A stretch of DNA of 46,781 nt, taken from an archaeon (GTDB lineage: Archaea > Iainarchaeota > Iainarchaeia > Iainarchaeales > Iainarchaeaceae). The stretch covers positions 1-46,781 of the forward strand of contig DASRUN010000017.1 of NCBI GenBank assembly GCA_035655435.1. Reading direction: 5' to 3'. The number at the start of each line of letters is the position of its first letter. The stretch's first letter is position 1. Below the pieces are notes generated by a model that made no database searches, was not told where the DNA came from, and saw only the letters and a list, made by a program, of their open reading frames with translations. This document shows positions 881 to 45,862 of the stretch, one piece after another. Position numbers and translations under genes: made by a program.

Positions 881-1032
881 AAGTTCACCTTCTTTTTCCA
901 TTCAACATATTTTGATTTTTTTATTAACAAAAAACCTTCCTGAGTTGGTTGTACAATAAGAATAGTTCCAGGTTTCAATTTTTCCTGTCGCCTTAACTCA
1001 GCAGGAAGTGTTATTCTTCCCCTTGTAGACAT
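877..1032 (-). CDS. AbrB/SpoVT (MazE-like) swapped-hairpin domain protein (51 aa)
   Basis: Below the ORF-track cutoff. The minus-strand product is MSTRGRITLPAELRRQEKLKPGTILIVQPTQEGFLLIKKSKYVEWKKKVNL. The GRITLPAELRR..L.PG segment is the classic AbrB-type DNA-binding motif. Confidence 0.5.
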   Translation of the reverse strand: MSTRGRITLPAELRRQEKLKPGTILIVQPTQEGFLLIKKSKYVEWKKKVNL

Positions 1033-1077
1033 TTTTACAACGTACATAGCACCAACTCTAATTTAGTAAGTAAAACC

Positions 1078-2169
1078 TCAAAAAGGCCTGTTATCTCGCC
1101 TCATCTTTAATTTAATCGAATTCCCCAATTTATCCATTATTTTATTGTAAACAATTTCTATTTCATCGGGCTTTAATTTCGCGCGCATATCAGCTTCAAT
1201 GAGAACGGAAGGATATGCATATTCTCTATGAAGAGAACTGAGTGCGAACGCAACAGAAGCAATTTCATCTGCTTTTTCGGAAACATTTCCTTTTGCAATA
1301 AACTCAACCCTCAAAGGACGATCGTATTCTGTGGGCTTGATGTACAAACCGAAAATATTTTCACTCCACTCGGGAGAAAAATCCTGGAGCACCGGATGCT
1401 GTTTTATATTTTTTGTATAATTGAAAACGCACGAACGTTCATTTACCCCAAGAAAATAATCCAAAAAAGCGGAATCGAACATTCCTTCTAATTTCTCCGG
1501 CTCGAGAATTGAATCTTTTGAAAGAATTTGCTCTTGTACAATTTGGCGAAAGCGCGAACCGCGAGAATCCTCAACAGTAGCAATCAAAGTACAATTATTT
1601 TTTTCCGCCAACTCGTAAAGGGATTCAAATTCTTTTATTATTCCAATATAATTATCCGTTAAAGCGGATTCCTTTCTTGGTTTGTCCTGAAACTGCGGAA
1701 CAATCGAACCGTCAATGAACAAATACTTTGGCTTGTGGAGAAGAATCAATTTTTTTGAAGCATTAACTTCCTCTTTCAAACGAAGCAAGGATTTTGATTG
1801 CTCGGCTTCATCTTCCTCCAACGCACTATTACTCAAACGCGGTTCGGGAAATCTGAAAAAGCCGGGATAATAATGTGCGGCTTTTACAATGCCGTTATCA
1901 TACTCAAAACAAACTCCTACAGCGCGAACAAGAACAATATCCAGCGAAGCCAATCGTTTTGCAACAAAACCTGAATCAACTCCCCCTATCAAACCATTCG
2001 GAACCCACTTTCTAACAGGAGAAACCAATTTAGGTTCTTTCAAACCAAAATCAGGGGAAAAAATTTTATTCTTTAAGGGAGAAAGCTTTTGTGAAACCAA
2101 TTGTTTCCTTTTTTCGGAAGAGTGGATTGTTTCCACGGCCGAATTAATCACAAAACCAATATTATTCAT
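1078..2169 (-). CDS. nurA: NurA-family 5'-3' nuclease
   Basis: 363 aa. It carries IGGVDSGFV and LFIDGSIVPQ acidic motifs and a C-terminal YAYPSVLIEADMRAK motif typical of NurA. A HerA-like gene lies downstream on the same strand. Confidence 0.65.
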   Translation of the reverse strand: MNNIGFVINSAVETIHSSEKRKQLVSQKLSPLKNKIFSPDFGLKEPKLVSPVRKWVPNGLIGGVDSGFVAKRLASLDIVLVRAVGVCFEYDNGIVKAAHYYPGFFRFPEPRLSNSALEEDEAEQSKSLLRLKEEVNASKKLILLHKPKYLFIDGSIVPQFQDKPRKESALTDNYIGIIKEFESLYELAEKNNCTLIATVEDSRGSRFRQIVQEQILSKDSILEPEKLEGMFDSAFLDYFLGVNERSCVFNYTKNIKQHPVLQDFSPEWSENIFGLYIKPTEYDRPLRVEFIAKGNVSEKADEIASVAFALSSLHREYAYPSVLIEADMRAKLKPDEIEIVYNKIMDKLGNSIKLKMRRDNRPF

Positions 2170-5139: not shown

Positions 5140-5367
5140 ATGATGAAACCGGATAAAACAATTTTTTTTGGAATAGCGGCACTTGCGATAATTCTTAGTT
5201 TAGTGTTACTTGCATTTTTTGCAGGATTTCAAAAATCATTTGCGAACGCAAACACAATATCAAATTCAAGCCCTGTAGGATTGATTGCAATAGTGGCAAT
5301 AGTCCTTTTCGGGGGCATATACTTATTCAAGGCAGCGGGGCATATTCTCAAAGGAGTGATAGAATGA
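5140..5367 (+). CDS. small membrane protein (2 predicted TM helices)
   Basis: 75 aa. It has two long hydrophobic stretches (FFGIAALAIILSLVLLAFFAGF and VGLIAIVAIVLFGGIYLF). An ATGA overlap joins it to the downstream GTPase gene. Confidence 0.5.
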   Translation: MMKPDKTIFFGIAALAIILSLVLLAFFAGFQKSFANANTISNSSPVGLIAIVAIVLFGGIYLFKAAGHILKGVIE

Positions 5368-6107
5368 ATTATTGGAATATTGTTAGGAATGTTGTGGAAG
5401 AAGCAGACATAGTGATTGAGATAGTTGACGCGAGGTTTCCACAGCAGAGCAGGAACAATGATCTTGAGAGACTTGCGCACGCAAAAGGAAAAAAAATTCT
5501 CATAATACTAAACAAAAGCGACCTTGTTTCAAGAAAAAAACTTGCGGAAGCAAAAAAAGGATTTGAATACCCGGCAATCTTTGTTTCCACAAAAGACCGC
5601 AAAGGAAAAACAAGGATAAAAAAAACGCTTGGAATGCTATCCGAAAAAAAAGACGTAAAAGTCGCAATCTGTGGCTACCCCAACACGGGGAAAAGTTCCA
5701 TAGCAAACATGCTCAGAGGAAAAAAAAGTTCAAGAACAAGTTCAACTGCGGGATTTACAAAAGGAAAACAAGCAGTAAGATTGAGCTCGAAAATAATGCT
5801 CATAGATACTCCGGGAATAATTCCCTTGAACGAACATGATGAAACACTTATGGTTATGTTATCCGCGAAAAACCCACAACATCTAAAAGATATTGAGGGA
5901 ACAGGCCTTGAAATAGGAAAAATTTTGTTGGAAAACAATAAAGAAAAACTCCTAAAATATTATGAAATAGAGGCAAAAGATGAGGAAGAACTGCTTGAAC
6001 AAATAGCACTAAAAAGGAATAAAATGAGAAAAGGAAACATTCCGGACACTAATTCCGCGGCAATGCTGCTGATAAACGACTTCCAAAAGGGAAAAATAGG
6101 TTTATAA
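5364..6107 (+). CDS. circularly permuted ribosome-biogenesis GTPase (YlqF/YawG family)
   Basis: G4 (NKSDL) precedes G1 (GYPNTGKSS) and G3 (DTPG). This permuted motif order is typical of the family. Confidence 0.8.
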   Translation: MNYWNIVRNVVEEADIVIEIVDARFPQQSRNNDLERLAHAKGKKILIILNKSDLVSRKKLAEAKKGFEYPAIFVSTKDRKGKTRIKKTLGMLSEKKDVKVAICGYPNTGKSSIANMLRGKKSSRTSSTAGFTKGKQAVRLSSKIMLIDTPGIIPLNEHDETLMVMLSAKNPQHLKDIEGTGLEIGKILLENNKEKLLKYYEIEAKDEEELLEQIALKRNKMRKGNIPDTNSAAMLLINDFQKGKIGL

Positions 6108-6132
6108 GAAACGGTTTCCAAAAGAATAGAGA

Positions 6133-6789
6133 ATGATTCCACAGCAGACAAAAAAAATCGTTGGTTACTTCATAGCAATATACATAGCATTTGGATTGCT
6201 GTTAGTGTACTTATTTTTGTTCAACACCGGGCTTGAAATAATCGAGGAATTCAACGAACAAACCGCCTCAAAAGATGTGTACATTTACAACAACACGGAC
6301 CGGATAATAAACAACGTGGAAATAAAAATCCGGGAAAATGAAACGGAAACGGAGTTCGCAAAACTGAAATTCCTAGCGCCAAAAGAAAAAAGACTCCTGG
6401 AACTTCCAACAACAATTTCACAGGCAATAATAATAGCAACAGCGCCTTTTCACGTTACCGTTGAAAAATTAGTTGTCCTCAAAGTGAAAGGACAGAACAC
6501 GGTAAAACTAAGTTTCCCGGAAACAATAGAATTCGGAAAATCGTTCAAATTCACCGTGGACTTATGCAACCAAAACACCGATGACACGCAATACAAAATA
6601 GAGGAAGAACACGAACCCGGATTTTTTTCGGAACCATCGAAAACCGAGGTAACCACAATAGAAGCCACAAAATGCAAAACACTTGAATACACACTAACTC
6701 CCATAGGAAAAGGCGAAACCACAATCTATTTTAATGTGAACTCGGAAAATACTACCGACCAAGTTCAACAAACAATAACGGTTGATTAA
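6133..6789 (+). CDS. hypothetical membrane-anchored protein
   Basis: 218 aa. It has an N-terminal TM helix (IVGYFIAIYIAFGLLLVYLFLF) followed by a beta-rich T/E/K-rich domain. I recognise no family. Confidence 0.5.
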   Translation: MIPQQTKKIVGYFIAIYIAFGLLLVYLFLFNTGLEIIEEFNEQTASKDVYIYNNTDRIINNVEIKIRENETETEFAKLKFLAPKEKRLLELPTTISQAIIIATAPFHVTVEKLVVLKVKGQNTVKLSFPETIEFGKSFKFTVDLCNQNTDDTQYKIEEEHEPGFFSEPSKTEVTTIEATKCKTLEYTLTPIGKGETTIYFNVNSENTTDQVQQTITVD

Positions 6790-6792
6790 CCC

Positions 6793-7449
6793 ATGGCTGA
6801 AAAACAAAACGCAAGCATCATTGATATTATCCAAAAAATGGTGAAAGAAGGGGAAAGCGAAGAAAAAATAGTGAAAACCCTCAAAGACCTTGGAGTGGAT
6901 CAGGAAAAAGCAAAACGCCTCCTATTGCTGGGACAGGCGGATACATTTGCATTATTGAAGGGAGAAATAAAAAAAATTGTCACACAGGAAATGGAAAACC
7001 AAAAACCCGTAATGAGAAAATTTATAGAAGAGGAAGCGGTTGGAGCGGCAGACACATCAAGGCAACAACTCACAAAAGCGGTTATTTCTGATTTAAAAGA
7101 ATACGAAAAAGACATTACGGGGCAAAGTACAACATTCCGCGAACAAATAAAAGACAACATATCCAAAGTTAATGAACTCAATGACAGAGTAAAAGTGAAA
7201 CTAAATGAATTGGGAGAAGCGGTTAGACAGGTTCAGATAGATATGGATGAACTCCATGTGAAAGGAGTCGGAGGAAGAAACAAACTCATAAGCAATGTGC
7301 TAATGGGATTAGGATTGCTGTTTGGATTGGGGGCTGCGTTCTTATTCTTCACAAATTTTGGACAGCCGTTGAGCGTGGACACAATAATAATGTTGGTAAT
7401 TGTTGCACTCATAACAATAACAATGATGTTTGTTGCAACGGTAATATAA
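6793..7449 (+). CDS. hypothetical coiled-coil protein with C-terminal TM helices
   Basis: 218 aa. It has a charged helical N-part and a C-terminal hydrophobic region (LMGLGLLFGLGAAFLFF...IIMLVIVALITITMMFVATVI). Confidence 0.5.
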   Translation: MAEKQNASIIDIIQKMVKEGESEEKIVKTLKDLGVDQEKAKRLLLLGQADTFALLKGEIKKIVTQEMENQKPVMRKFIEEEAVGAADTSRQQLTKAVISDLKEYEKDITGQSTTFREQIKDNISKVNELNDRVKVKLNELGEAVRQVQIDMDELHVKGVGGRNKLISNVLMGLGLLFGLGAAFLFFTNFGQPLSVDTIIMLVIVALITITMMFVATVI

Positions 7450-7491
7450 AAAAAATCGAATTTAAATTTTAGAAAAAGTTTTTTAAAAAAA

Positions 7492-7647
7492 TTATTTCTT
7501 AATGAATGTCCCATCGCCTTGAGTGGAAAACTTATCATATTCTTTTAATGATACAATTGCATTCTCCAAGAGCACCTTATTTCGAAGGCTTTTTTCCTTC
7601 AAATGCAGCCTCTCAAGCTGCGTCATAATATGCTCAAACTCAATCAT
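7492..7647 (-). CDS. possible small helical protein (51 aa)
   Basis: Below the ORF-track cutoff. The minus-strand product is MIEFEHIMTQLERLHLKEKSLRNKVLLENAIVSLKEYDKFSTQGDGTFIKK. It lies just downstream of hjc. Support is weak. Confidence 0.2.
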   Translation of the reverse strand: MIEFEHIMTQLERLHLKEKSLRNKVLLENAIVSLKEYDKFSTQGDGTFIKK

Positions 7648-7680
7648 CAGGACAACCAGTAATATTACATGCGAGAGACT

Positions 7681-8097
7681 TTATAAACTTGAACCTGGAA
7701 GAATACGCGATTGTTCTCCAATAAAAACTTCTAATGGAACTCCGACTTTTTGGACCTTTTCAAAAGAAATTGAATAATTCTTTGCCTTGTTAAATTCCTT
7801 TGGATGGATAAAAAACCAACCTTTGTTAGGATATTTCCATGCAACGAAAACTTCGGCATTTCCAAGTTCCTGCCACTTCAAAAGTTCATCCATTTGTTCT
7901 TCTCTAATGTTCAAATAATCCGCACGCCACGCTTTTGCCTCAATCACAATATTCCGACCTTTTCCCATAATAATCAAATCAGGCATTGGAAGAGAATTTT
8001 TTCCAGAACCGGCAGTTCTAGCAATCGCAAAACCTTTTCCCCAAAAAAGTTTTATGAGTTCACGTTCCGCATTCGCGCCTTTGTTGTAATGAGCCAT
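7681..8097 (-). CDS. hjc: Holliday junction resolvase Hjc
   Basis: 138 aa. It carries KGANAERELIKLFWGKGFAIARTAGSG...PDLIIMGKGRNIVIEAKA, the Hjc catalytic E...PD...E-x-K motif arrangement. Confidence 0.85.
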   Translation of the reverse strand: MAHYNKGANAERELIKLFWGKGFAIARTAGSGKNSLPMPDLIIMGKGRNIVIEAKAWRADYLNIREEQMDELLKWQELGNAEVFVAWKYPNKGWFFIHPKEFNKAKNYSISFEKVQKVGVPLEVFIGEQSRILPGSSL

Positions 8098-8180
8098 GAA
8101 AAAGGATATAAATTTCAGAGTATTTAATTGAATTGTGATGCACAGAAAACAAATAAATAATTCAAAAAGAGGATTATATA

Positions 8181-8651
8181 ATGGCTAAAGAAAAATTCGG
8201 TTTTATAGTATCGGGAAAAAAGAAAAAAGACGGGAACCTGGAAATCCGAGTAAGGATTGACAGCAACAGGCGAACAAAAAAAGGCGAATTCTTTGAGCAT
8301 ATAAAATTCATGCCTGAGATCATAGAAGAGGGTGCGTTTCAGGTTGGACAAACAATTGGAAAGGTAATTTATTCCCACATAGAAACAACAAATGGACCAA
8401 AAATAGGACGCGAAGGAAATTTGATTTATGAAAAAAATGGACAAAGATTAAAACCTATTTTACCTGAACTGAATGAAAGGCTCCATGAACACGCATTGGC
8501 AATTCTCTGCAAACATTATCCGAACGCACAATTGAACTATCTCCCGGGATCAGCAAAAGAGGTGTATGCCAGAGTAAGCAGAATAGCCAGGGATGAAAGA
8601 AGAATGCTGAACATATTGCCAAACATATGGCACAGAAGATACAGGGGATGA
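8181..8651 (+). CDS. hypothetical protein
   Basis: 156 aa with coding-like composition. I recognise no family. Confidence 0.45.
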   Translation: MAKEKFGFIVSGKKKKDGNLEIRVRIDSNRRTKKGEFFEHIKFMPEIIEEGAFQVGQTIGKVIYSHIETTNGPKIGREGNLIYEKNGQRLKPILPELNERLHEHALAILCKHYPNAQLNYLPGSAKEVYARVSRIARDERRMLNILPNIWHRRYRG

Positions 8652-10916: not shown

Positions 10917-11432
10917 CTACTTTTTTCTAAAACTTCTTCTAGGAACATCGGGAACTTCGCGAACAGTTTCCTCAATAGGAAGAACAAGTTCCCCGGTTCT
11001 GTACAAAATAAAACCAATGAAAATCGATGCTAACCAAAAAAGAAGAGCTGCAATCGGGGAAAGCAAACCGCTCCAAAATTGGCGCGCGGTCAACCTTGCT
11101 GTGTCCTCTCTAACAACAATTCCGGTTGATTTGTAAAGAGTGTCAGCGCAAACATTGAAATGAGTTCTTTGTTCCAACAAACCTTGTGAAGTATCAGTGT
11201 TCTGAATGCAATCCTCATAATATTTCATATTGTCCCAGGAATCAAACATTGAAGCGGAAGCCTGAATGAACATCAATAAAGCCGCAAAAATAACAAACGA
11301 ACCAATTAGTTTTGGAATGTGAATGTTTTTTCCCGCAACTCTAAAAAAAATAATTCTTCTCAAACAAAAATCACTAAAACTACTAATGGAATTAATTAGT
11401 ATATAAAAGTTGTGCCGAAGCCCAAACAACAA
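10917..11432 (-). CDS. hypothetical membrane protein (start uncertain)
   Basis: It has two TM segments (LIGSFVIFAALLMFI and LLSPIAALLFWLASIFIGFILY). The ORF-track start is a TTG overlapping the divergent gene, so the true start is probably further downstream. Confidence 0.4.
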   Translation of the reverse strand: MLFGLRHNFYILINSISSFSDFCLRRIIFFRVAGKNIHIPKLIGSFVIFAALLMFIQASASMFDSWDNMKYYEDCIQNTDTSQGLLEQRTHFNVCADTLYKSTGIVVREDTARLTARQFWSGLLSPIAALLFWLASIFIGFILYRTGELVLPIEETVREVPDVPRRSFRKK

Positions 11433-11466
11433 ATCTTTTAAACAAGCAAAGCAATTCTACTACAAA

Positions 11467-11724
11467 ATGAAAGAAATAATGAGGAACATTTTCGCGGCAA
11501 TCTTCTACTCGGTAATGGGAGTAATAGCAATATCGCTTTTCATAACCGCATTCATAAACGCGCTCGTGCTTCAAGTGGTTTACGGGAATGTTCCGGCGGC
11601 TTTTTCGCACTATTTCGGAGCACTCCTCGCACTGATTGCCGCAACTTTTGTTGTAATGCGCGCCGAACGATTCCTCGGCCTCCTCGCAAAATCGGGGTTC
11701 GTGGACGAATTGCTCGCAAAATAA
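11467..11724 (+). CDS. small hypothetical membrane protein
   Basis: This is ORF 11410..11724 trimmed to MKEIMRNIFAAIFYSVMGVIAISLFITAF.... It has 2-3 hydrophobic helices. Confidence 0.4.
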   Translation: MKEIMRNIFAAIFYSVMGVIAISLFITAFINALVLQVVYGNVPAAFSHYFGALLALIAATFVVMRAERFLGLLAKSGFVDELLAK

Positions 11725-11824
11725 GCTATTTGGGGGGCTTTATAATCCTTTTTTAACGGACATTGATCAGCGAAATTCTTTTCTTTTTTGGTTCAGCTTT
11801 GAAAGGCTTTTTCTTTTAGTCGAG

Positions 11825-11854
11825 CTTTTCTTTTTGGCCTGTCAAAAAGAAAAG
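11825..11854 (+). other. perfect 12-bp hairpin abutting the tRNA-Val 5' end
   Basis: CTTTTCTTTTTG (11825-11836), loop GCCTGT, then CAAAAAGAAAAG (11843-11854). The tRNA starts at 11858. Confidence 0.6.
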
Positions 11855-11857
11855 GTC

Positions 11858-11930
11858 GGGCTCGTGGTCTAGCGGTTATGACATCTCCTTTACACGGAGG
11901 GAGTCGCAGGTTCGAATCCTGCCGGGCCCA
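11858..11930 (+). tRNA. tRNA-Val (anticodon TAC)
   Basis: Manual cloverleaf. The acceptor pairs GGGCTCG with CGGGCCC. The D arm contains GTCTAGCGGTTATGAC. The anticodon stem pairs TCTCC with GGAGG around the loop TTTACAC. The T arm is GCAGG-TTCGAATC-CTGCC and the discriminator is A. No CCA is encoded. Confidence 0.9.
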
Positions 11931-12056
11931 TTTAGGAGAAACTAGTTAGATCAAACGAAACATGTGCGCTCGAAGACGCACACATCTGGCCGGGGACGTT
12001 TCCCCGAAAGAATAGTTTAAATACACAATTATAATAATTTAATCAAGGCGAAAAAA

Positions 12057-12617
12057 ATGGTTTTGGAAATTATTGGATTGGTTGTAATAATAGGCGCGGT
12101 AATCGTGGCACTATGGTTTTTGCTTGCCTACAACGGTTTTGTACAGCTCAGAAATCGTATTGATAATGCTTGGAGCCAAATAGATGTACAACTCAAGAGA
12201 AGATATGATCTTGTGCCGAACCTAATGGAAACCGTTAAGGGATATGCAAAGCACGAAAAAGAAACATTCAAAATGGTCACAGATGCAAGAGCACAAGCAT
12301 TGAACGCGCAAGGGGTTTCACAACAGGGAAAAGCCGAAAACATGTTGAGCGGAGCACTCAAATCGCTTTTTGCAATCTCGGAAGCATACCCGGCTTTGCT
12401 GGCAAACAAAAATTTTGCAATGCTCCAAGAAGAATTATCCGGAATAGAATCAAAAATAGCATTTTCAAGACAATTTTACAATGATGAAGTACTTAGGTTC
12501 AACACAAAAACGGAAACACTTCCGGATACAATCATAGCGGGAATATTCGGATTCAAAAAAAGGGATTACTTCGGAATCGAAGAACAAGCAAGAGATCCGG
12601 TAAAAGTAAAATTCTAA
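12057..12617 (+). CDS. lemA: LemA-family membrane protein
   Basis: 186 aa. It has an N-terminal TM helix followed by YNGFVQLRNRIDNAWSQIDVQLKRRYDLVPNL...AYPALLANKNF, a LemA signature. Confidence 0.85.
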   Translation: MVLEIIGLVVIIGAVIVALWFLLAYNGFVQLRNRIDNAWSQIDVQLKRRYDLVPNLMETVKGYAKHEKETFKMVTDARAQALNAQGVSQQGKAENMLSGALKSLFAISEAYPALLANKNFAMLQEELSGIESKIAFSRQFYNDEVLRFNTKTETLPDTIIAGIFGFKKRDYFGIEEQARDPVKVKF

Positions 12618-15981: not shown

Positions 15982-16084
15982 GCGAGAGTAGTATAGCGGT
16001 AGTACGCTGCCTTGCCACGGAAATTCTTTAGATTAAGTTTTCTGCAAAAAGGCTGCAGCCCGGGTTCGATTCCCGGCTCTCGCA
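15982..16084 (+). tRNA. tRNA-Gly (anticodon GCC) with a 32-nt canonical-position intron (16018-16049)
   Basis: The acceptor pairs GCGAGAG with CTCTCGC. The D arm is GTAT-AGCGGTA-GTAC. The anticodon stem pairs CTGCC with GGCTG (one U-U mismatch). The anticodon GCC sits at 16014-16016. The T arm is CCGGG-TTCGATT-CCCGG. The intron lies between positions 37 and 38 and shows a recognisable bulge-helix-bulge: central helix TTGC/GCAA with 3-nt bulges CAC and AAA. Confidence 0.8.
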
Positions 16085-22882: not shown

Positions 22883-24160
22883 ATGTTTGACTTTCTCAAG
22901 AAAAAAATAACTGATTTTACAGACAAACTAAAAGAAAAACTTCAGGAAAAAAAACCTGAAACACAAGAAATTCCTTTGGAAAAAGTTCCTGAAAAACCCG
23001 CGCAGAAACCAATTGAAAAGAAAAAAGCGGAAACAAAAACTCAAAAAATTACTGAAAAAAAAGAAAAGAAGAAAAAAGAGAAAAAATCTGAAGCGAAAGA
23101 AGAAATTGCACTGGAAACTGAAACTCCCGAAGAAATTTCCGAGGAAGTTGTTGAACCGGAACAGGAAGAAATAATTGAAACGGAAGAAACATCTGATGCG
23201 GAAGAGTTTGACACTGCCGGAGAAAAAAAAGAGGCCGAAGAAAAAATAAAAGAAGTTCGCGGAGAAGAAAAAAGAGAACTCAAAGCAAAAGTTGGTTTTT
23301 TCAAAAAAATAACAGGATTTATCGGCGGAAAAATAAAAATATCCGAAAACGAAACAAAAGAATTCTTCGAAGAATTCGAACTAAGTTTATTGGAATCGGA
23401 TGTTGAACAGGAAACCGCGGAAGCAATAGTAAAAGAACTCAAAGAAAGAATTGTGGGAAAAGAAATATCCTCAAAAGAAAATGTTTCTGAATTCCTGAAA
23501 CAAGAAGTTCGAGAATCTTTGAAAACAGTAATGGAAACACAAAAAATCGAATTATTGAAAATGAAACAAAAACCAATCAAAATACTTTTCATAGGACCGA
23601 ACGGAGCGGGAAAAACAACATCCATTGCAAAAATAGCAAAATACTTTTTGAATAATAAAAAAACAGTTATTATTGCGGCGGGAGATACTTTCAGAGCTGC
23701 GGCAATTGAACAATTACAGGAACATGCAGATAAGTTAGGGGTGAAACTTGTAAAGCATAATTATGGAGCCGATCCTGCAGCGGTTGGATTTGATGCGGTA
23801 AAAATGGCGGAAGCGAAAGGAATTGATGTTGTACTTATTGATTCTGCGGGAAGACAGGATACAAACAAAAATCTGCTTGAGGAAATGAAAAAAATCGAGA
23901 GAGTTGTAAAACCGGATTTGAAATTATATGTAGGAGAAGCATACACTGGGCAGGCGCTACTTGAACAGGTCGAGGAATTTGATAAAGCAATTAATTTGGA
24001 TGGATTTGTATTAACAAAAATTGATACTGATACAAAAGGCGGAACAGCAATTTCACTTTTGCACAAATTCAAAAAACCAATTTTATTTGTTGGAACCGGA
24101 CAAAGGTATGAAGATTTGCTTGAATTCAAACCGGAATTTATAATTGATAGGATATTGTGA
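22883..24160 (+). CDS. ftsY: signal recognition particle receptor FtsY
   Basis: It has a K/E-rich A domain followed by an NG domain. The NG-domain motifs are GPNGAGKTTSIAK (G1), DTFRAAA, DSAGR (G3) and TKIDTDTKGG (G4). Confidence 0.9.
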   Translation: MFDFLKKKITDFTDKLKEKLQEKKPETQEIPLEKVPEKPAQKPIEKKKAETKTQKITEKKEKKKKEKKSEAKEEIALETETPEEISEEVVEPEQEEIIETEETSDAEEFDTAGEKKEAEEKIKEVRGEEKRELKAKVGFFKKITGFIGGKIKISENETKEFFEEFELSLLESDVEQETAEAIVKELKERIVGKEISSKENVSEFLKQEVRESLKTVMETQKIELLKMKQKPIKILFIGPNGAGKTTSIAKIAKYFLNNKKTVIIAAGDTFRAAAIEQLQEHADKLGVKLVKHNYGADPAAVGFDAVKMAEAKGIDVVLIDSAGRQDTNKNLLEEMKKIERVVKPDLKLYVGEAYTGQALLEQVEEFDKAINLDGFVLTKIDTDTKGGTAISLLHKFKKPILFVGTGQRYEDLLEFKPEFIIDRIL

Positions 24161-24178: not shown

Positions 24179-24883
24179 TTAATCTGTTTTCTTTCTAATT
24201 GTGAGAGTTCTAAAAGCCAGTAGCCCGCCAATTTGCCATTCAATGTTCTTATATTTACCGAGGAATTTTCCCAATTCAGATTCAATTGCGTAATCCATTA
24301 TTATTATCACGCTTGCTAATCCGCCCGGCTTTAGTATTTCTATTACATTAGAGATTGCTTTTTTTGGTGGAAACAAGGGCGTATGATACACTCCACCAAA
24401 GGTTGATTCTACTAAATGGAAGCTGTTTCTGCCAAATGTTTTTGCCAATTCTTCCGGCACTGCAACTACGTCTGGTTTGTGTGCTTTTTGAATGTCTGTT
24501 GTGACTATTTGCATTTTTACTTTACCTTGTAATTTTCTTTCAAGATCTCTTTTGAACGTGCTTTGTCCTACACCCTCGTTCAATATTCTTATTGTTTCCC
24601 CAGGAAACCGTTTTGACAATCCAATAATTTCATTGACAAAATCTTTTTGATGATGGAAATTAATGTCGTGAAGGTTCCTGTCAGGAGCCACATATTCCAG
24701 AGGTTTGCTTCCCTCAAAACTTTGCTTTCTTTTTTCTATTATTTTTTTTTCTTTAGTTGACAACCTTAATCTTCTTTGTGTTCCAAGGCTTCGAATTACA
24801 CCGGACAGTCTTCCAAGCATATCTAAAGCAATAAAGTCGTTGAAGCTATTTAAGCATTTCCAAGTAATGTGATTGTCACTCAA
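24179..24883 (-). CDS. probable class I SAM-dependent methyltransferase (start uncertain)
   Basis: The segments IRILNEGVGQSTF (motif I-like) and LKPGGLASVIII (post-II/III-like) give weak, motif-level support only. Confidence 0.4.
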   Translation of the reverse strand: MSDNHITWKCLNSFNDFIALDMLGRLSGVIRSLGTQRRLRLSTKEKKIIEKRKQSFEGSKPLEYVAPDRNLHDINFHHQKDFVNEIIGLSKRFPGETIRILNEGVGQSTFKRDLERKLQGKVKMQIVTTDIQKAHKPDVVAVPEELAKTFGRNSFHLVESTFGGVYHTPLFPPKKAISNVIEILKPGGLASVIIIMDYAIESELGKFLGKYKNIEWQIGGLLAFRTLTIRKKTD

Positions 24884-26117: not shown

Positions 26118-26726
26118 TTAGTAACGCAAACCTAAAAGTGCGCGATCTTTTGAAAGAGCGGCTTTTATTCTCGAAATTCTACTTTTTACAGTGCCTATTG
26201 GAACTTTAAACTGAGAACTCAATTCCTTTTGTACATTTATAGGATCAATCAAACGCAGATCGAAATAAGCATGAGCAAAAGGAACAAGTTTCGGACTTAC
26301 TCTTTTCTCGATTGCCCTATTTAAAGTTTTCAAAAATTCATGAGTAATAAGCTGAGAGTCCGGCGCAGTTGCAGGAGGTTTTCTCGCAGAATCAAGTTTA
26401 AATGCATCAATATGTGGTTGCGTCCTCTTAGTACTACGAACAAAATTTATGAAGTTGTTTTGCCACATTAATGCAGTGCGCTTGATAATATCAGTTTTTG
26501 TTGCTCCGTTTGGAAATTCTTCACCCAACTTCTCAATTTCTCGGTTTAGTCGCTCTCTAAGCCCTTCCTCAATAACATCAACAGTAATGCCCAATTTTTT
26601 TGCTTCAGGGTGTTTAACAAAATAGGCAGCTAGACCGGGAATTCTTCCCATAGCATATTCGTATATTTCCCACTGATCTTTTAGATGAACCGGCTTTTTT
26701 CCTCGTTTTCTTACAGGTTTCAACAT
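26118..26726 (-). CDS. sigma-70/ECF-like protein (region 4 HTH, possible region 2)
   Basis: The C-terminal FDLRLIDPINVQKELSSQFKVPIGTVKSRISRIKAAL matches the sigma-70 region 4.2 pattern (R.v..L......s..EIA..l.i..GTVKSRl.RA...L). TALMWQNNFINFVRSTKR resembles the region 2.4 WL..IA.N...d..R motif. Confidence 0.5.
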   Translation of the reverse strand: MLKPVRKRGKKPVHLKDQWEIYEYAMGRIPGLAAYFVKHPEAKKLGITVDVIEEGLRERLNREIEKLGEEFPNGATKTDIIKRTALMWQNNFINFVRSTKRTQPHIDAFKLDSARKPPATAPDSQLITHEFLKTLNRAIEKRVSPKLVPFAHAYFDLRLIDPINVQKELSSQFKVPIGTVKSRISRIKAALSKDRALLGLRY

Positions 26727-26839: not shown

Positions 26840-29800
26840 ATGAGCTTGGGAGACAGCCTTAGAAAGGCAATGGAAAAACTCAGGAACAGTTCTTCCATTG
26901 ACAAGGAAACCGTAAAAGAGGCGGTAAAACAAATTCAAAGAGCACTCATTGCGGGAGACGTTGAAATAACTCTCGTAATGAAAATCAGCAAAGAAATAGA
27001 AGAAGAAGCATTCAAAGATTTGCCAAAAGGAATCAACAGAAAAGAACACATAATCAAAATCACTCATGATAAATTAGCCGGAATACTTGGAGGAAAAACC
27101 AAGGTTCCTGAAAAACCGGGAAAAATTTTATTAGTCGGATTATTCGGAAGCGGAAAATGTGTCCACCCTGAAACTATGATCCCAATGCCCGACGGGAAAA
27201 TAACAACAATAAAAGAAATTTACGATAATAATCCGGAAACAGCGTTTACACTTGAAGACGGATATGTAAAGGAACTCGCAAAGCCGTTAGAAGTATTTTC
27301 GTTGGATCCGGTAAGCATGAAAAATACTAAAGGGAAGGTCACGCACATATGGAAACTGAAAAAAGACAAGCCATTGTATAAAATAACTCTTGACAACGGA
27401 AATAACCACCAGGTTACTGTTACACAAGAACACCCTTTTTTTGTACTTGAACACGGAGAAATACACAAGACAAGAGCCGATGAAATTAAAATCGGACAAT
27501 ACATAGCCACACCGAAAAAACTACGAAATACGCATTGCCAAAATGATATCTCTGCCGAGGTCATGAGCATTCTTCTTCCGAATTGGATAATAGTCAACCA
27601 AAATCTTGCAAATCAAGCAAAGAAGATGCTTATTGAAAAATACGGGACTTTAAAAAATGCATTTTCATCGTTTGGAGAGAACTATTCATATATTACTTTT
27701 GTCGCGAACCTAAAAGCCGGAGAATTAAGAGTCAGTACACTAAGAAAACTTGAAAAACTTGAATTTAAATATGAATCTGAAGAGGAGATAACGGTAAAGC
27801 GTTCTGGGAGTGCGGCGAGAAAAGTAAAAATCCCAACACAAATAAACCCTGAGCTCGGGGAGTTTTTGGGTTATGTTTGCGCGGATGGACACATGAGAAA
27901 ACAATATCTAGAGATAGTTAACGAAGATGATGATATAATTAATAGAATAGAAACAATCGGAAAAAATATCTTCGGAATAAATCCAATTACAAAACCGGAC
28001 AACAGGACAGTTGCACTAAGAGATATCAGGTTTTGTTCAGTAATTTTAGCAGAGGTTTTCAACAGGCTTTTTTACATACCATATAACAAAAAAAGCGACA
28101 AAATCAGGGTTCCGAAACAGGTACTTCTTGCTGACGAGCCGACTAGAAAATCTTTCCTTCAGGCATATTTCGACTGTGACGGGTATACGAGAGATGGAAC
28201 GAGAAGTATAGAGTTTTCTACTGCAAGCAGATTCATGGGGGAAGAAATCAGAATAATGCTTTCTGCGTTTGGTTTTGTCCCGGGTTATAGCAGAAAAATT
28301 ATCAACAACAAGACACATTACCGTATTTTCGTAAAATCCAAGGACGTGGAAAAGTTTTACATTAAAATAGGCTCGCGAATAAGATTCAAACATGAAAGAT
28401 TGAGTAAAAGCATTGAAATTGGAAGAGGACAGACTTTTGGAAAGCAAGAAATGTTGCATGTGGGAAAAAAGCTAAAACATTATAGAGAATATATGGGGGC
28501 TACAATTGGAGAAATACAAAAACATGTTCCGTCTTATGGCACATACGAATCAGAAGGGTTGATTTCAAGAAATTCGCTCAGGAAATTCATTAAAGCCATT
28601 AAGACTACAAAAAACAAAAACAACTCGATTCTAAAAGCTACCTTAAACGGCGCCAACTTGAATGAAATCAATAAATTGGTCAATGAGCCACATACCTGGA
28701 CAAACGCGGTGGTTCATAGGCTGTGCCAACAGGACTACTTGGCGTATTCAAATAAGTATTTACAGATAACAGAAAAAGGAAGGAAACTGCTGGAAAAAAA
28801 TGCGGCGTTTGATGAATCCATAGTTCTGCAACTTGAAAAACTTGCAGAATCGGAAATATCCTGGATCAAAGTGAAAAAAATGGAGTTAGTAAACAATGCG
28901 GATTTTGTCTACGACCTTACAGTGGAAAATTATCATAATTTTGTTGCAAACCACACAATAGTGCACAACACCACAACAACAGGAAAACTTGCAAAATGGT
29001 ATTCAAAACGCGGACTCAAAGTAGGAGTAATCGCCGCAGATGTTTACAGACCGGCTGCGTATAAGCAATTGAAAACATTGGCTGAAAATGCAAAGGTCGA
29101 ATTCTATGGAAACGAAAAAGAAAAAAATTCTGTGAAAATAATTAACGAAGGATTAAAAAAACTGGAAAAAAGCGATCTAATTATTTGTGATTCAGCGGGA
29201 AGAAGCGCGCTGGATGAAGAACTTACAAAAGAAATTCGCGCAATAGACAAAGCATTCGGCGCAAAAGAAAAATGGTTAGTAATAGGAGCGGATGTAGGAC
29301 AAGTTGCAAAAAAACAAGCGAACGCATTCCACGAAAGCATTGGAGTTAATGGAGTAATAATAACAAAAATGGATGGATCAGCAAAAGGAGGAGGGGCATT
29401 AACGGCGTGCAACCAAACCGGGGCAAAAGTATACTTTATCGGAACAGGAGAAAAAATAGATGAAATACAGGAATTTGATGCAACCAGATATTTGAGCAGA
29501 GTAATGGGATATGGAGATCTTGAAGCCTTACTTGAAAAAGCAAAAGAAATTCAGGAAGAACAAGGATTCGATGCCGAAGAAATGATGAAAGGAGATTTTA
29601 ATTTAGAAGCATTTTATCAACAAATGAAAGCAACAAGAAAAATAGGAACAATGGACAAAGTAATGGACATGATGGGTTTGAAAACTCAAGTGCCAAAAGA
29701 ATTCGCGCAAATGGGAGAAGAGAAACTCAACAAATACGGTTATTTAATTGATTCAATGACAATGGAAGAAAAAATTGATCCGGAATTAATGAATTCAAGC

Positions 29801-29998
29801 AGAATAGCGAGAATAGCAAAGGGATCGGGAACAACACAGGAAGAAGTAAGGGAACTTTTGAAAAATTATAAAAAAATGAAAAAAATGTTCAAACAATTCA
29901 AAGGACTGGATGAAAAACAATTACAAGACGGAAAAGGAGTTAACATGCAAAAACTCCAGAAAATGTTTGCAAAGAAAAAAAAATTCAAAATAAGATGA
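26840..29998 (+). CDS. srp54: signal recognition particle protein SRP54, interrupted in-frame by an intein
   Basis: It has an N domain, a split P-loop (GLFGSGK / TTTTGKLA), DSAGR, TKMDGSAKGG and a Met-rich M domain (MDKVMDMMGLK). It is 1052 aa in total and 448 aa after removing the intein. Confidence 0.9.
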   Translation: MSLGDSLRKAMEKLRNSSSIDKETVKEAVKQIQRALIAGDVEITLVMKISKEIEEEAFKDLPKGINRKEHIIKITHDKLAGILGGKTKVPEKPGKILLVGLFGSGKCVHPETMIPMPDGKITTIKEIYDNNPETAFTLEDGYVKELAKPLEVFSLDPVSMKNTKGKVTHIWKLKKDKPLYKITLDNGNNHQVTVTQEHPFFVLEHGEIHKTRADEIKIGQYIATPKKLRNTHCQNDISAEVMSILLPNWIIVNQNLANQAKKMLIEKYGTLKNAFSSFGENYSYITFVANLKAGELRVSTLRKLEKLEFKYESEEEITVKRSGSAARKVKIPTQINPELGEFLGYVCADGHMRKQYLEIVNEDDDIINRIETIGKNIFGINPITKPDNRTVALRDIRFCSVILAEVFNRLFYIPYNKKSDKIRVPKQVLLADEPTRKSFLQAYFDCDGYTRDGTRSIEFSTASRFMGEEIRIMLSAFGFVPGYSRKIINNKTHYRIFVKSKDVEKFYIKIGSRIRFKHERLSKSIEIGRGQTFGKQEMLHVGKKLKHYREYMGATIGEIQKHVPSYGTYESEGLISRNSLRKFIKAIKTTKNKNNSILKATLNGANLNEINKLVNEPHTWTNAVVHRLCQQDYLAYSNKYLQITEKGRKLLEKNAAFDESIVLQLEKLAESEISWIKVKKMELVNNADFVYDLTVENYHNFVANHTIVHNTTTTGKLAKWYSKRGLKVGVIAADVYRPAAYKQLKTLAENAKVEFYGNEKEKNSVKIINEGLKKLEKSDLIICDSAGRSALDEELTKEIRAIDKAFGAKEKWLVIGADVGQVAKKQANAFHESIGVNGVIITKMDGSAKGGGALTACNQTGAKVYFIGTGEKIDEIQEFDATRYLSRVMGYGDLEALLEKAKEIQEEQGFDAEEMMKGDFNLEAFYQQMKATRKIGTMDKVMDMMGLKTQVPKEFAQMGEEKLNKYGYLIDSMTMEEKIDPELMNSSRIARIAKGSGTTQEEVRELLKNYKKMKKMFKQFKGLDEKQLQDGKGVNMQKLQKMFAKKKKFKIR
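27158..28969 (+). mobile_element. SRP54 intein (604 aa) with a LAGLIDADG homing-endonuclease domain, inserted in the Walker A P-loop
   Basis: It starts at Cys1 (CVHPETMIPMPDG). Block B is VTVTQEHPFF. The LAGLIDADG motifs are LGYVCADGHM and LQAYFDCDGYT. Blocks F and G are VYDLTVENYHNFVANHTIVHN, followed by Thr at +1. Confidence 0.85.
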
Positions 29999-42461: not shown

Positions 42462-43232
42462 ATGCAAGGACTTGAAATAAAAAACCTATACGCAAAAACC
42501 GAGGGAAAAGAAATACTCAAAGGAGTAAACCTCGCGGTCAAGCAAGGGGAAATACATGCGATCATGGGTCCTAACGGATCTGGAAAAAGCACGCTCAGCT
42601 CCGTAATAATGGGGTCGCCGAAATACGAAATAACAAATGGGGAAATAAAATTCGACGGAAAAAAAATTTCCGAACTAGAAGCCGATGAAAGGGCAAAATT
42701 AGGATTATTCTTATCATTCCAATACCCGTTTGAAATACAAGGATTAACCTTTTCAAAATTTTTGCACGCGGCATACAAAAACCATTATCCATTAAAACCG
42801 CTCAGCATTGTACAATTCAGAATGCTTCTCAAAGAACAGGGAAAAGAATTAGGAATGACGGATGATTTCATTGACAGAGAATTAAATGTCGGGTTTTCCG
42901 GTGGAGAAAAAAAACGCGCGGAAATACTCCAAATGAAAGTATTGAAACCGAAAATAGCAATACTTGATGAAACCGATTCCGGTCTTGACATTGATTCGTT
43001 GAAACTTGTTTCGGAAGCGGTTAATAGGATGCGCTCGAAAGAATTCGGAGCAATAGTAATAACACACTACAAAAGAATCCTGAATTATTTGAAACCGGAT
43101 TTTGTGCACATAATGAACGACGGAAAAATAATAAAAAGCGGCGGAGCGGAACTCGCAGACCAACTTGAAGAAAAAGGATACTCGGAAATAGTCAAAGAAT
43201 TCGGCGGAAACCTGCTTAGGGTGAAAGAATAA
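42462..43232 (+). CDS. sufC: Fe-S cluster assembly ATPase SufC
   Basis: MQGLEIKNLYA... The Walker A is GPNGSGKST. The ABC signature is FSGGEKKR. The Walker B is ILDETDSGLD. A TAATG overlap joins it to sufB. Confidence 0.95.
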   Translation: MQGLEIKNLYAKTEGKEILKGVNLAVKQGEIHAIMGPNGSGKSTLSSVIMGSPKYEITNGEIKFDGKKISELEADERAKLGLFLSFQYPFEIQGLTFSKFLHAAYKNHYPLKPLSIVQFRMLLKEQGKELGMTDDFIDRELNVGFSGGEKKRAEILQMKVLKPKIAILDETDSGLDIDSLKLVSEAVNRMRSKEFGAIVITHYKRILNYLKPDFVHIMNDGKIIKSGGAELADQLEEKGYSEIVKEFGGNLLRVKE

Positions 43233-45862
43233 TGGATCGGAAAAAAGAAAGGCAACTAACAGAAATAGATTACACCAAATACGATTTCAATTACAAGACT
43301 GATGATTACGAAATCAAATTTGACAAAGGAATAAACGAGGATGTTGTAAGAAGAATTTCAAAACTCAAAAATGAGCCGGAATGGATGCTGGACATAAGAC
43401 TCAAAGCATACAAAGCATTTGTGGAAAAAGAAATGCCAAAATGGGGCGCAGATCTAAGCGAAATACACTTTGATGACATAATCTATTACATGAAAGCTTC
43501 ACAGGACAACAAAAAAAGTTGGGATGATGTTCCAAAAGAAGTCAAGGATACTTTTGATAGATTAGGAATTCCTGAAGCGGAGAAAAAAATGTTAGCAGGA
43601 ATTGGTGCACAATATGATTCGGAAGTAATGTACCACAGTATTCGCGAAGACCTTGAAAAACAAGGAGTTGTTTTCCTTTCAATGGATGAAGGATTAAAAA
43701 AATATCCGGAAATTGTGAAAGAACATTTTACAAAAATAGTCCCTATTAACGACAACAAATTTGCATCATTGAATACAGCTGTTTGGAGCGGGGGATCGTT
43801 TGTATACATTCCAAAAAACATAAAAGTGGATATCCCACTACAGGCATATTTCAGAATCAATGCGGAAAGCTTTGGACAATTTGAAAGAACACTTATAATA
43901 GCGGATGAAGGAAGTCACGTACATTATGTTGAGGGATGTACAGCACCGAGATTCACAACACAATCTTTACATTCCGCGGTTGTTGAGGTAATAGCAAAAC
44001 CCAATGCGCACGTAAGATACACAACCATCCAAAATTGGGCAAACAACATTTACAACCTTGTAACGAAAAGGGCGTTTGCTTATAGAGACGCAACCGTAGA
44101 ATGGGTTGACGGAAATTTGGGCTGTCTGGCACAAGGCAGCACCGTAACAACGCCTGCGGGAATCAGGACTATCGAAACTCTTGATGTTGGCGATAAAGTG
44201 TTGTCTTTCGATGAACAACTTGGAAAATTGTGTTTCCATTCGGTAGTTGCCAAGCGTTTTTCCGGCTACCAAAAAATTCGCCAAGTTTCTGTCGGAGAGC
44301 GCAAGCTGCTTGCAACAGACAATCACCCGTTTTACTCTTATGCATACGACAAGAACAAGCCGCGGAAATTAGGTCGCTACAAGCTTGGCTATGTCAGAGC
44401 GGATCAGTTGACAAAAGCAATTATTCCACGCACTTCGATTGATTACGGGAAACCACACAAACTTGAAGCCCCGGAACTGACCACAAAGTTTTCATCCCAT
44501 AACCAATACAAGCATAATCTCACAGTGATACGCAAACGTTCACAAAAAATGACTCAAACGGAATATACAAACAATGAGATCATGTGGCTATTTGGGTATT
44601 GGATCGGAGACGGGAATATTGAAATGGAGCAGGCAAAAACCAATGGAGTAATACGCTTTGCAAAAGTGGGTTTTTCTACGCCGCGCGAAGATCGAGCCAG
44701 GGGCAAACTCATGAATACGATGGCTGCACTTATCGAAGTTGAACCGACAGAACGCCGGGACGGCGTCCACTTGGCATGGAACAGCAAAGAACTGGCAGAA
44801 TTCTTCCACATTAATGGGTTTAATGGGAAGGCTAAAGATAAACAGGTTCCGGAATGGGTGTGGTCCCTGCCGGAATCACAACGACTGGCTTTTGTTGCGG
44901 GTTATTTGGATGCGGATGGGAACATAAATGATCGTTATTTTTCTATAAAGTCTGTCAATCGCCCTTTGCTGGAAGACATTTCCTCTATCTTGGTAACATT
45001 GGGAATCACATCACGACTGCATACAGAATTCAGCGAACCGAAAACCGTGACTATAATGGGAGTGAAATGCACCGCACACGGGTCACATCGATTGGACTTT
45101 AATATTGATGAACGATTGCCGGAGTTCGTAAGCCCCGCACTTCAAGAAAAAGCGCTTAGTGCACCGGAACATATCTTTCAAACTAAGCGTTTGGTGGGGC
45201 GTTCCAACATCCACCTTGGGAAGAATGTGGAAATTGTTACCGTGAATGTTTCAGCACCATATTCAGAACCGGTTCCTACTTGGGACATTGAAGTTGAAGG
45301 CACCGGCAATTTTGTATCACAGGGTTTTATTGTCCACAACTCCAAAATCACAATGAAATATCCGGCAATCTATTTGATGGAAGAAGGCGCAAAAGGAGAG
45401 GTTTTGAGCATTGCATTGGCCGGAAAAGGACAACACCAGGATGCGGGCGCAAAAATAATACACCTTGCATCAAGAACAACAAGCACAATAACAAGCAAGA
45501 GCATTTCAAAGGATGGGGGAAGAAGCTCTTATAGAGGCCTTATAAAAGTTCCAAGAGGAGCGAAAAATGTCAGAAGCAGCGTAATGTGCGACGCACTAAT
45601 ACTTGATGAGAAAAGCAGGAGCGATACATATCCTTCCGTTGAAATAGACGAACCAACAGCAACAATAGCGCACGAAGCAAAAGTGGGAAAAATTGGAGAT
45701 GACCAAATATTTTATTTGATGTCAAAAGGACTGAGCCAGGCGGAAGCGCTAACACTCATAGTACTGGGATTCATACAACCTTTCACAAAAACACTTCCAT
45801 TAGAATTTTCGGTTGAATTAAACAGGCTAATTGAAATGGAAATGGAAAATTCTGTGGGGTGA
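43232..45862 (+). CDS. sufB: Fe-S cluster assembly protein SufB, interrupted in-frame by an intein
   Basis: Conserved SufB blocks are present (FGQFERTLIIADEGSHVHYVEGCTAP, ...VEWVDGNLG / SKITMKYPAIYL..., HEAKVGKIGDDQIFYLMSKG). It is 876 aa in total and 470 aa without the intein. Confidence 0.9.
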   Translation: MDRKKERQLTEIDYTKYDFNYKTDDYEIKFDKGINEDVVRRISKLKNEPEWMLDIRLKAYKAFVEKEMPKWGADLSEIHFDDIIYYMKASQDNKKSWDDVPKEVKDTFDRLGIPEAEKKMLAGIGAQYDSEVMYHSIREDLEKQGVVFLSMDEGLKKYPEIVKEHFTKIVPINDNKFASLNTAVWSGGSFVYIPKNIKVDIPLQAYFRINAESFGQFERTLIIADEGSHVHYVEGCTAPRFTTQSLHSAVVEVIAKPNAHVRYTTIQNWANNIYNLVTKRAFAYRDATVEWVDGNLGCLAQGSTVTTPAGIRTIETLDVGDKVLSFDEQLGKLCFHSVVAKRFSGYQKIRQVSVGERKLLATDNHPFYSYAYDKNKPRKLGRYKLGYVRADQLTKAIIPRTSIDYGKPHKLEAPELTTKFSSHNQYKHNLTVIRKRSQKMTQTEYTNNEIMWLFGYWIGDGNIEMEQAKTNGVIRFAKVGFSTPREDRARGKLMNTMAALIEVEPTERRDGVHLAWNSKELAEFFHINGFNGKAKDKQVPEWVWSLPESQRLAFVAGYLDADGNINDRYFSIKSVNRPLLEDISSILVTLGITSRLHTEFSEPKTVTIMGVKCTAHGSHRLDFNIDERLPEFVSPALQEKALSAPEHIFQTKRLVGRSNIHLGKNVEIVTVNVSAPYSEPVPTWDIEVEGTGNFVSQGFIVHNSKITMKYPAIYLMEEGAKGEVLSIALAGKGQHQDAGAKIIHLASRTTSTITSKSISKDGGRSSYRGLIKVPRGAKNVRSSVMCDALILDEKSRSDTYPSVEIDEPTATIAHEAKVGKIGDDQIFYLMSKGLSQAEALTLIVLGFIQPFTKTLPLEFSVELNRLIEMEMENSVG
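44123..45340 (+). mobile_element. SufB intein (406 aa) with a LAGLIDADG homing-endonuclease domain
   Basis: It starts at Cys1 (CLAQGSTVTTPAG). Block B is LLATDNHPFY. The LAGLIDADG motifs are LFGYWIGDGNI and VAGYLDADGNI. The terminus is TWDIEVEGTGNFVSQGFIVHN, followed by Ser at +1. Confidence 0.85.

Follow-up and report, generated by a model that had tools for sequence, protein, structure and literature searches.

A large LAGLIDADG-bearing intein in the Walker A motif of SRP54 from an Iainarchaeota archaeon, with relatives across DPANN lineages and in FtsY

The window analysed here, a stretch of 46,781 nt from an archaeon assigned to the Iainarchaeota (contig DASRUN010000017.1 of assembly GCA_035655435.1), contains an srp54 gene, encoding the GTPase of the signal recognition particle (SRP), that carries a large intein. 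A single long open reading frame (ORF) on the forward strand, 26840..29998, runs uninterrupted for 3159 nt and encodes a 1052-amino-acid (aa) SRP54 precursor plus a stop codon. Pfam profiles recognize in the host parts of this precursor an N domain (SRP54_N, aa 3-79, E 2.6e-13), an SRP-type GTPase G domain (SRP54, aa 711-889, E 1e-54) and a methionine-rich M domain for signal-peptide and RNA binding (SRP_SPB, aa 920-1017, E 1.7e-25), so that all three are present. The Walker A motif, or P-loop, is split. In the translation the junction at aa 106/107 reads ...KILLVGLFGSGK/CVHPETMIPMPDGK... (here and below a slash marks a junction), the first half of the P-loop being ...ILLVGLFGSGK, and the junction at aa 710/711 reads ...NFVANHTIVHN/TTTTGKLAKWY... 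The insert thus comprises aa 107-710, that is, nt 27158..28969, 604 aa or 1812 nt in frame. Its excision yields a 448-aa SRP54 with an intact Walker A motif, GLFGSGK/TTT, the joined stretch being GLFGSGKTTTTGK, and the empty srp54 site can be reconstructed as TTATTAGTCGGATTATTCGGAAGCGGAAAA/ACCACAACAACAGGAAAACTTGCAAAATGG. The gene and its parts are arranged as follows.

26840..29998, + strand: SRP54 precursor with intein (ORF list; Pfam).
26840..27157, + strand: N-extein, aa 1-106, with the SRP54 N domain and the first half of Walker A, ending ...GLFGSGK (translation; Pfam).
27158..28969, + strand: intein, 604 aa, from Cys1 to His-Asn (translation, Pfam, alignment, AlphaFold2, Foldseek; gap-free junction in empty-site orthologues).
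27158..27517, + strand: Hint-N, intein aa 1-120, with block A Cys1 and block B T89-Q-E-H92 (beta-rich in AlphaFold2; aligns to mini-intein, VMA, CDC21 and RadA intein structures).
27518..27841, + strand: module 1, intein aa 121-228, structured, of helices and beta strands, lying between Hint-N and the endonuclease (AlphaFold2; predicted local distance difference test score, pLDDT, about 80-95).
27842..28339, + strand: LAGLIDADG homing-endonuclease (HEN) core, intein aa 229-394 (Pfam, profile, Foldseek, conservation).
28340..28852, + strand: accessory domain, intein aa 395-565, of helical structure and including a winged-helix-like module (about aa 488-553, nt 28619..28816) (AlphaFold2, Foldseek, sub-threshold Pfam).
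28853..28969, + strand: Hint-C, intein aa 566-604, with block F VYDLTVENYHNF and block G ...IVHN (alignments; D586 and H593 conserved).
28970..29998, + strand: C-extein, 342 aa and stop, starting at Thr+1 (TTTTGK...), with the remaining G domain and the M domain (translation; Pfam).

The insert is confirmed as a class-1 Hint-domain intein with a nested two-motif LAGLIDADG endonuclease, at similarity levels far beyond chance. The Pfam Intein_splicing model matches the precursor over aa 114-710 with E 1.5e-32 and 113 bits (cutoff 35.8), covering model positions 1-155 of 155, and the insert holds the residues needed for splicing, namely Cys1, block B T89-Q-E-H92 and the terminal H603-N604, with Thr at +1. 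An alignment of 23 family members, the window intein and 22 relatives (alignment A1), conserves Cys1, a block B of the form T-x-E-H, block F VYDLTVEDxHNF and a terminal VHN, together with the LAGLIDADG consensus LAEFLGYVxGDGH for motif 1 and FLRAYFDCDGY for motif 2. When the A1 profile was compared with solved inteins there were more than 20 matches, among them the T. litoralis VMA intein (TliVMA; 1.8e-57, or 2e-48 for the endonuclease stretch alone), PhoVMA, PhoCDC21-1 (6rpq, E 1.1e-32), PI-TkoII (deposited as PI-PkoII), PI-PfuI and many mini-inteins. An AlphaFold2 model of the intein built on A1 has a mean pLDDT of 92.8 and a predicted TM-score (pTM) of 0.89, and in a Foldseek comparison of this model with the PDB the top match is again TliVMA (E 1.5e-27, target TM-score (TMt) 0.85, root-mean-square deviation 4.1), followed by PI-TkoII, PI-PfuI, PhoVMA and PI-SceI, with I-Tsp061I and I-DmoI matching the core. 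An original prediction, made from the letters of the window, had described an SRP54 ORF whose P-loop is split between the Walker A Lys and Thr, had proposed that removal of aa 107-710 gives a 448-aa SRP54, and had listed Cys1, a TQEH block B, two LAGLIDADG motifs, a His-Asn end and Thr+1 as intein hallmarks. Translation and Pfam bear out the host and the split, the coordinates prove exact to the base, every hallmark is present in the translation and alignment, and the profile check for Hint similarity that it had named came out positive in both the Pfam and the A1 comparisons.

Within the endonuclease core, LAGLIDADG motif 1 is LGEFLGYVCADGH (intein aa 231-245, putative catalytic Asp243) and motif 2 is FLQAYFDCDGY (intein aa 333-343, putative catalytic Asp341), both helices ending in an acidic residue followed by Gly. 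The Pfam LAGLIDADG_3 model matches with E 2.5e-13 in the precursor and 5.6e-14 in the intein alone. The AlphaFold2 secondary structure of intein aa 229-394 agrees with the alpha-beta-beta-alpha-beta-beta-alpha pseudo-dimeric fold, and Foldseek relates the core to I-DmoI (TMt about 0.7), I-Tsp061I (0.66) and the TliVMA HEN. Conservation was followed across 102 relatives, with identities taken from MAFFT alignments by simple identity counts. T89 and H92 of block B, D586 of block F and K312 are present in 100% of them, H593 of block F in 99%, D243 of motif 1 in 97% and D341 of motif 2 in 96%; none of these seven residues played any part in setting the intein boundaries. The intein is moreover 569-605 aa long in 95 of 103 cases. 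The joint conservation of catalytic residues and length argues for selection, present or recent, on both splicing and endonuclease activity.

The core is flanked by two further structured regions. Module 1 has no counterpart in TliVMA, in which Hint-N (to about residue 127) leads into the HEN at residue 139; profile positions 124-214 are unmatched in that comparison. It is the least conserved part of the intein, with a mean identity to relatives of 19%, and a Pfam scan of aa 118-231 gave no family at threshold and one spurious sub-threshold match (SNaCT9, E 0.015). On the other side of the core, intein aa 395-566 modelled alone gave a helical structure with pLDDT 88.7, containing, at about aa 488-553, a unit of three helices, a hairpin and a further helix (H-H-H-E-E-H). 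The stretch HRLCQQDYLAYSNKYLQITEKGRKLLEK, which resembles a helix-turn-helix (HTH) and occupies intein aa 517-544, corresponds to the predicted third helix, beta-hairpin and next helix of this unit. Matches of Pfam HTH_45 to it stay below threshold, both in the window intein (E 0.0016) and in the 10 of 21 relatives that show one (best 5.5e-05), the A1 profile matches Sso10a at E 1.3e-3, and among the Foldseek matches listed for the accessory model, proteins that bind DNA through a winged helix are by far the most frequent (Hpr, MarR family, Sso10a at TMt 0.71, AspA), with a best E of only 0.016. A search of PDB sequences with the accessory region alone (142 aa) returned nothing meaningful, the best match being a polyamine synthase at E 0.017. 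With moderate confidence, then, we regard the accessory module as winged-helix-like. The original prediction had noted an extra DNA-binding-like, HTH-like region after the endonuclease, and the models place it where predicted; the region is not unusual, as HTH-like accessory domains at the same position, which modulate DNA cleavage, have already been described for the TliVMA and PI-TkoII inteins (Beyer & Iwai 2022, PMC8966425). Such a domain is therefore to be expected for this class of intein, though it is larger here.

Empty versions of the site exist in related genomes. The spliced product is 58-80% identical to 448-aa archaeal SRP54 proteins, and its best 120 matches, which span this identity range and lengths of 438-484 aa (mostly 446-453), are all free of inteins and, where named, come from Diapherotrites or unclassified archaea. 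Three loci (L081, L082 and L083) share with the window the gene order SRP54, A24 prepilin peptidase, RibD, and L081 additionally resembles it in having FtsY upstream and genes for an epimerase and PcrB downstream. The srp54 genes of all three, encoding a 448-aa product, are collinear with the spliced exteins of the window along all 1347 nt (76-77% identity) and run through the junction without a gap. They thus represent empty sites, and the intein amounts to an insertion of exactly 1812 nt. These observations bear on a more trivial explanation, that assembly has produced a chimera or that srp54 has become a pseudogene through an insertion that does not splice. The source organism is uncultured and no second srp54 copy is available for comparison; nevertheless more than 100 independent clusters, drawn from many assemblies and sources, show the same architecture, the 3159-nt frame is unbroken with all splicing residues intact, and the exteins retain their identity to functional-looking SRP54 proteins. 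We consider this explanation effectively refuted.

The intein belongs to a widespread family. Homologue searches, which score the 8000 candidates sharing most words with the query, returned 111 clusters for the intein alone, approximately 100 of which are SRP54 proteins of about 1020-1055 aa with the intein at the identical G-x-x-G-x-G-K/C ... H-N/T-T site. Those with a name come from Micrarchaeota, Nanoarchaeota, Pacearchaeota, Nanoarchaeia or simply 'archaeon', and the closest intein-bearing match has only 55% protein identity to the window intein. In species-representative genomes, where occupancy counts are lower bounds and taxon labels are those of the metagenome-assembled genome (MAG) records, the matches listed include the intein in Iainarchaeum, Micrarchaeota, Woesearchaeota, Pacearchaeota and Nanoarchaeia MAGs. 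The distribution of the intein across DPANN lineages is patchy. Two MAGs labelled Thermoplasmatales and Thermoplasmatota (L005 and L008) carry an SRP54 with the same intein at 33-34% identity, which could be either a real occurrence outside DPANN or mis-binned contigs of DPANN episymbionts.

The same intein lineage also occupies the paralogue and partner of SRP54. FtsY, the SRP receptor, is encoded in the window 2.7 kb upstream of SRP54.

22883..24160, + strand: FtsY, 425 aa (Pfam).

Its P-loop, GPNGAGK/TTS (junction after nt 23614), is unoccupied here, the position being one that this intein family takes in FtsY of other DPANN archaea, and the site is identical to that in SRP54 at 37 of 60 nt. 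Five matches from the intein search are proteins of FtsY type, lacking an M domain and having a G-[IF]-N-G-x-G-K P-loop at about residue 190-250, with the intein at the same position. By simple identity counts from MAFFT alignments, the inteins of three FtsY proteins are 55-64% identical to SRP54-hosted inteins, despite an identity of only about 27% between FtsY-type exteins and the SRP54 exteins of the window, and we conclude on this basis that the intein has moved between SRP54 and FtsY. Indeed, one locus (L084) is the mirror image of the window: its FtsY is occupied (999 aa with a 591-aa intein, 5316..8315) and its SRP54, 2.8 kb downstream (11107..12468, 453 aa), is intein-free, and FtsY is likewise occupied at a further locus (L085). 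A single P-loop intein lineage is found in both SRP GTPase partners, one or the other being occupied in the window and in L084. Also in L084, 3.7 kb upstream of FtsY (495..1583), lies a 362-aa ORF whose only recorded Pfam match is LAGLIDADG_3. Across loci the paralogous SRP54 and FtsY sites have 33-39 of 60 nt in common, centred on an invariant GGAAAA/AC core, a level of similarity that would fit an endonuclease normally able to discriminate between the two sites.

More distant relatives (21-27% full-length identity) are inserted immediately behind the Walker A lysine in other NTPases, the hosts in the first three cases being assigned from the P-loop motif: IF2/aIF5B-like GTPases (GHVDHGK/C..HN/TT), SMC-like ATPases, some of them bacterial (GPNGCGK/C..HN/SN), and MCM (GDPGVAK/C..HN/SQ). 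T2SSE/VirB11-like ATPases and TIP49 carry a relative at the same position after the Walker A lysine. Full-length relatives at 21-26% identity, in hosts that are SMC-like by motif, were also seen in Omnitrophota, Planctomycetales, Pyrinomonadaceae and Limnocylindria MAGs (L017, L018, L019, L022, L023 and L025) and in a Methanosarcinales genome (L034). Comparison of these sequences suggests that a single group of P-loop inteins is present in both archaea and bacteria. P-loop-to-P-loop transfer of inteins and transfer between paralogues have been reported in the eukaryote Anaeramoeba (Gallot-Lavallee et al. 2023, PMC10710043), and SRP54 and FtsY show this pattern here.

How the SRP54 intein has persisted can be judged from its divergence relative to that of its host. 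Pairwise identities of inteins and exteins, counted in the same simple way from MAFFT alignments, are correlated (Spearman 0.78), the intein usually being the faster-diverging of the two; some hosts at 70-80% identity carry inteins that are only about 33% identical, and in 119 of 4186 pairs the inteins are more similar than the hosts by at least 5 points. From these sequence comparisons we read the history of the intein as mostly vertical descent with losses and occasional lateral transfer. The G+C content of the intein (37.1%) is close to that of the exteins (36.2%), on which ground we reject a recent gain from a compositionally different donor. Both the correlation in divergence and the equality of base composition would also be expected if the intein splices but its endonuclease is inactive, the HEN and accessory domain being kept for Hint folding and splicing (a HEN-Hint mutualism) and inheritance now being purely vertical; inactive HENs are known in archaeal P-loop inteins, for example in PhoVMA, whose endonuclease is degenerate and has lost its acidic residues (PMC8966425). 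We think this unlikely. In contrast to PhoVMA, both LAGLIDADG acidic residues and Lys312 are present here and in 96-100% of the 102 relatives, full-length accessory domains are found in nearly all relatives, as the narrow range of intein lengths indicates, and the patchy distribution, the empty sites in the closest relatives and the jump between paralogues all argue against an inert passenger.

Our working hypothesis, in which we place considerable confidence, is that a genuine mobile LAGLIDADG-bearing intein occupies the srp54 Walker A motif of a DPANN archaeon (Iainarchaeota/Diapherotrites-like), sitting between Lys106 and Thr, and that it splices, homes and persists by descent, loss and transfer. 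Translation would give the 1052-aa precursor, with 604 residues between Lys and Thr of the P-loop; because the insert separates these two residues, the precursor is probably unable to bind GTP properly and is presumably inactive as a GTPase. Given where the insert lies, it is reasonable to suppose that SRP54 needs splicing in order to function. By analogy with the established class-1 pathway, Cys1 would undergo an N-S acyl shift, the hydroxyl of Thr+1 would attack the resulting thioester and take over the N-extein by trans-esterification, cyclization of Asn604 aided by His603 would free the intein, and an O-N shift would leave the 448-aa SRP54 with its P-loop intact. The freed intein, or the precursor itself, may then cut an intein-less srp54 site-specifically at the P-loop coding sequence (conserved core ...GGAAAA/ACNAC...), and recombinational repair from the occupied allele would copy the intein into the cut gene, with the winged-helix-like accessory domain and module 1 probably widening the DNA contacts. 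Vertical descent and loss, together with occasional lateral transfer or transfer between SRP54 and FtsY in either direction, would account for persistence of the family.

Several points weigh against this hypothesis. Splicing and DNA cleavage are both predicted from conserved residues and folds. The correlated divergence of inteins and exteins would also be expected under prolonged vertical inheritance accompanied by many losses, which leaves ongoing homing unproven. The conservation of Cys1 and His-Asn is partly by construction, as both were used to set boundaries. Block B reads T-Q-E-H here against T-P-E-H in 20 of the 22 A1 relatives, a small deviation, and the evidence for a winged helix, from sub-threshold Pfam matches and modest Foldseek scores, is weak.

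An insertion in the catalytic P-loop of an essential GTPase, with a precursor expected to be inactive, also invites a non-parasitic explanation, that the cell has come to use the intein as a switch, with splicing conditional on redox state or stress and thereby gating active SRP54 and with it co-translational membrane-protein targeting in tiny, host-dependent DPANN cells. Cys1 is a redox-sensitive nucleophile, and conditional splicing is documented for other P-loop or ATPase inteins such as those of RadA and DnaB, as cited in PMC10.1101/2024.01.08.574615. The intein has, however, no sequence feature specific for regulation, its absence from the closest relatives argues against a host-beneficial role, and retention of the endonuclease argues for selfish maintenance; the switch thus strikes us as distinctly improbable.

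Among characterized systems the mobile SRP54 intein is closest to the VMA-b inteins of T. litoralis and P. horikoshii (PDB 7qss, 7qsu, 7qst), which also sit in a P-loop (PMC8966425). The two share an NTPase P-loop site, an architecture of Hint domain, two-motif LAGLIDADG HEN and accessory domain, a homologous HEN core, the best structural match, and an HTH-like accessory domain between HEN and Hint-C. They differ in host, an ATPase for VMA-b and an SRP-family GTPase here, and in size: the SRP54 intein has 604 aa as against 376-429 aa, and its accessory domain is of about 170 aa rather than about 65 aa. Between Hint-N and HEN, moreover, it carries a further structured module of about 100 aa, a place taken in the VMA inteins by a loop of 28-32 residues. 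The P-loop inteins of CDC21-1/MCM (PhoCDC21-1, 6rpq; PabCDC21-1, 6rpp), IF2/aIF5B-like, SMC and VirB11-like proteins occupy the same site before Ser/Thr and have a related Hint domain, but they form a different, only distantly related lineage in other hosts, some of them bacterial (SMC of Omnitrophota, Planctomycetales and others). An intein in the SRP receptor of Rhizophagus, related to an IF-2P intein (PMC10710043), likewise has an SRP-family GTPase as host, SR-alpha/FtsY being the paralogue and partner of SRP54, but the organism is a eukaryote and the protein is the receptor instead of SRP54. PI-TkoII and PI-PfuI (PDB 2cw7, 1dq3) resemble the SRP54 intein in exceeding 450 aa and in combining several domains, among them accessory ones that bind DNA, and they rank second and fourth among the Foldseek matches, but their hosts (DNA polymerase and ribonucleotide reductase), insertion sites and accessory domains are different.

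Full-text literature searches found no description of SRP54 or archaeal FtsY as an intein host, an absence that is not proof for other sources, and the text of Novikova et al. 2016 (PMC4760082) contains no SRP, FtsY or GTPase term. The original prediction had ventured that SRP54 was not a catalogued host and had named a search for SRP54 homologues with an insertion at GSGK/TT; more than 100 clusters have the same intein at the same position. The suggestion of novelty stands to the extent that no paper was found; it is tempered by the public availability of these machine-annotated clusters and by the report of an intein in the eukaryotic SRP-receptor paralogue (PMC10710043). SRP54 thus seems to be a new host, while the class of intein, a P-loop intein with LAGLIDADG HEN and HTH-like accessory domain, is already well known, and the concept of intein function is unchanged. 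Inteins described to date come mainly from proteins that act in replication, repair and recombination and from a few ATPases, and the SRP54/FtsY family extends the P-loop theme to protein targeting, in DPANN archaea, whose reduced genomes would seem unlikely carriers of 1.8 kb of selfish DNA in an essential gene. It also provides a natural archaeal example of paralogue and P-loop-to-P-loop transfer, formally described only recently in a eukaryote (PMC10710043), and comprises numerous large LAGLIDADG enzymes that have diverged, look intact and possess two accessory modules, of possible interest for meganuclease and intein engineering. There is a practical consequence for annotation: under the NCBI pipeline some of these genes are named 'LAGLIDADG family homing endonuclease' and others 'signal recognition particle receptor subunit alpha', and the former label can mask an essential marker gene.

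Elsewhere in the window, the SufB gene (43232..45862, + strand, 876 aa) carries a second intein of 406 aa at about nt 44123..45340, so that these 47 kb hold two inteins. Its junctions read VEWVDGNLG/CLAQGSTV ... GFIVHN/SKITMKYP and its LAGLIDADG motifs are WLFGYWIGDGN and LAFVAGYLDADGN; in Pfam the ORF shows a split SUFBD_core, LAGLIDADG_3 (4.4e-14) and Hint matches. SufB is a recognized intein host. Between FtsY and SRP54 lie two reverse-strand ORFs of 202 aa (26118..26726) and 234 aa (24179..24883), neither of which matches a Pfam family at E 1e-3. The small ORFs that L081 and L083 have at this place are different ones, and the spacer is therefore variable. An Rfam scan of the window found only tRNAs, including a third one of 103 nt at 15982..16084 (+ strand; 52.3 bits) that ARAGORN did not report, and whose length suggests a tRNA gene with an intron.

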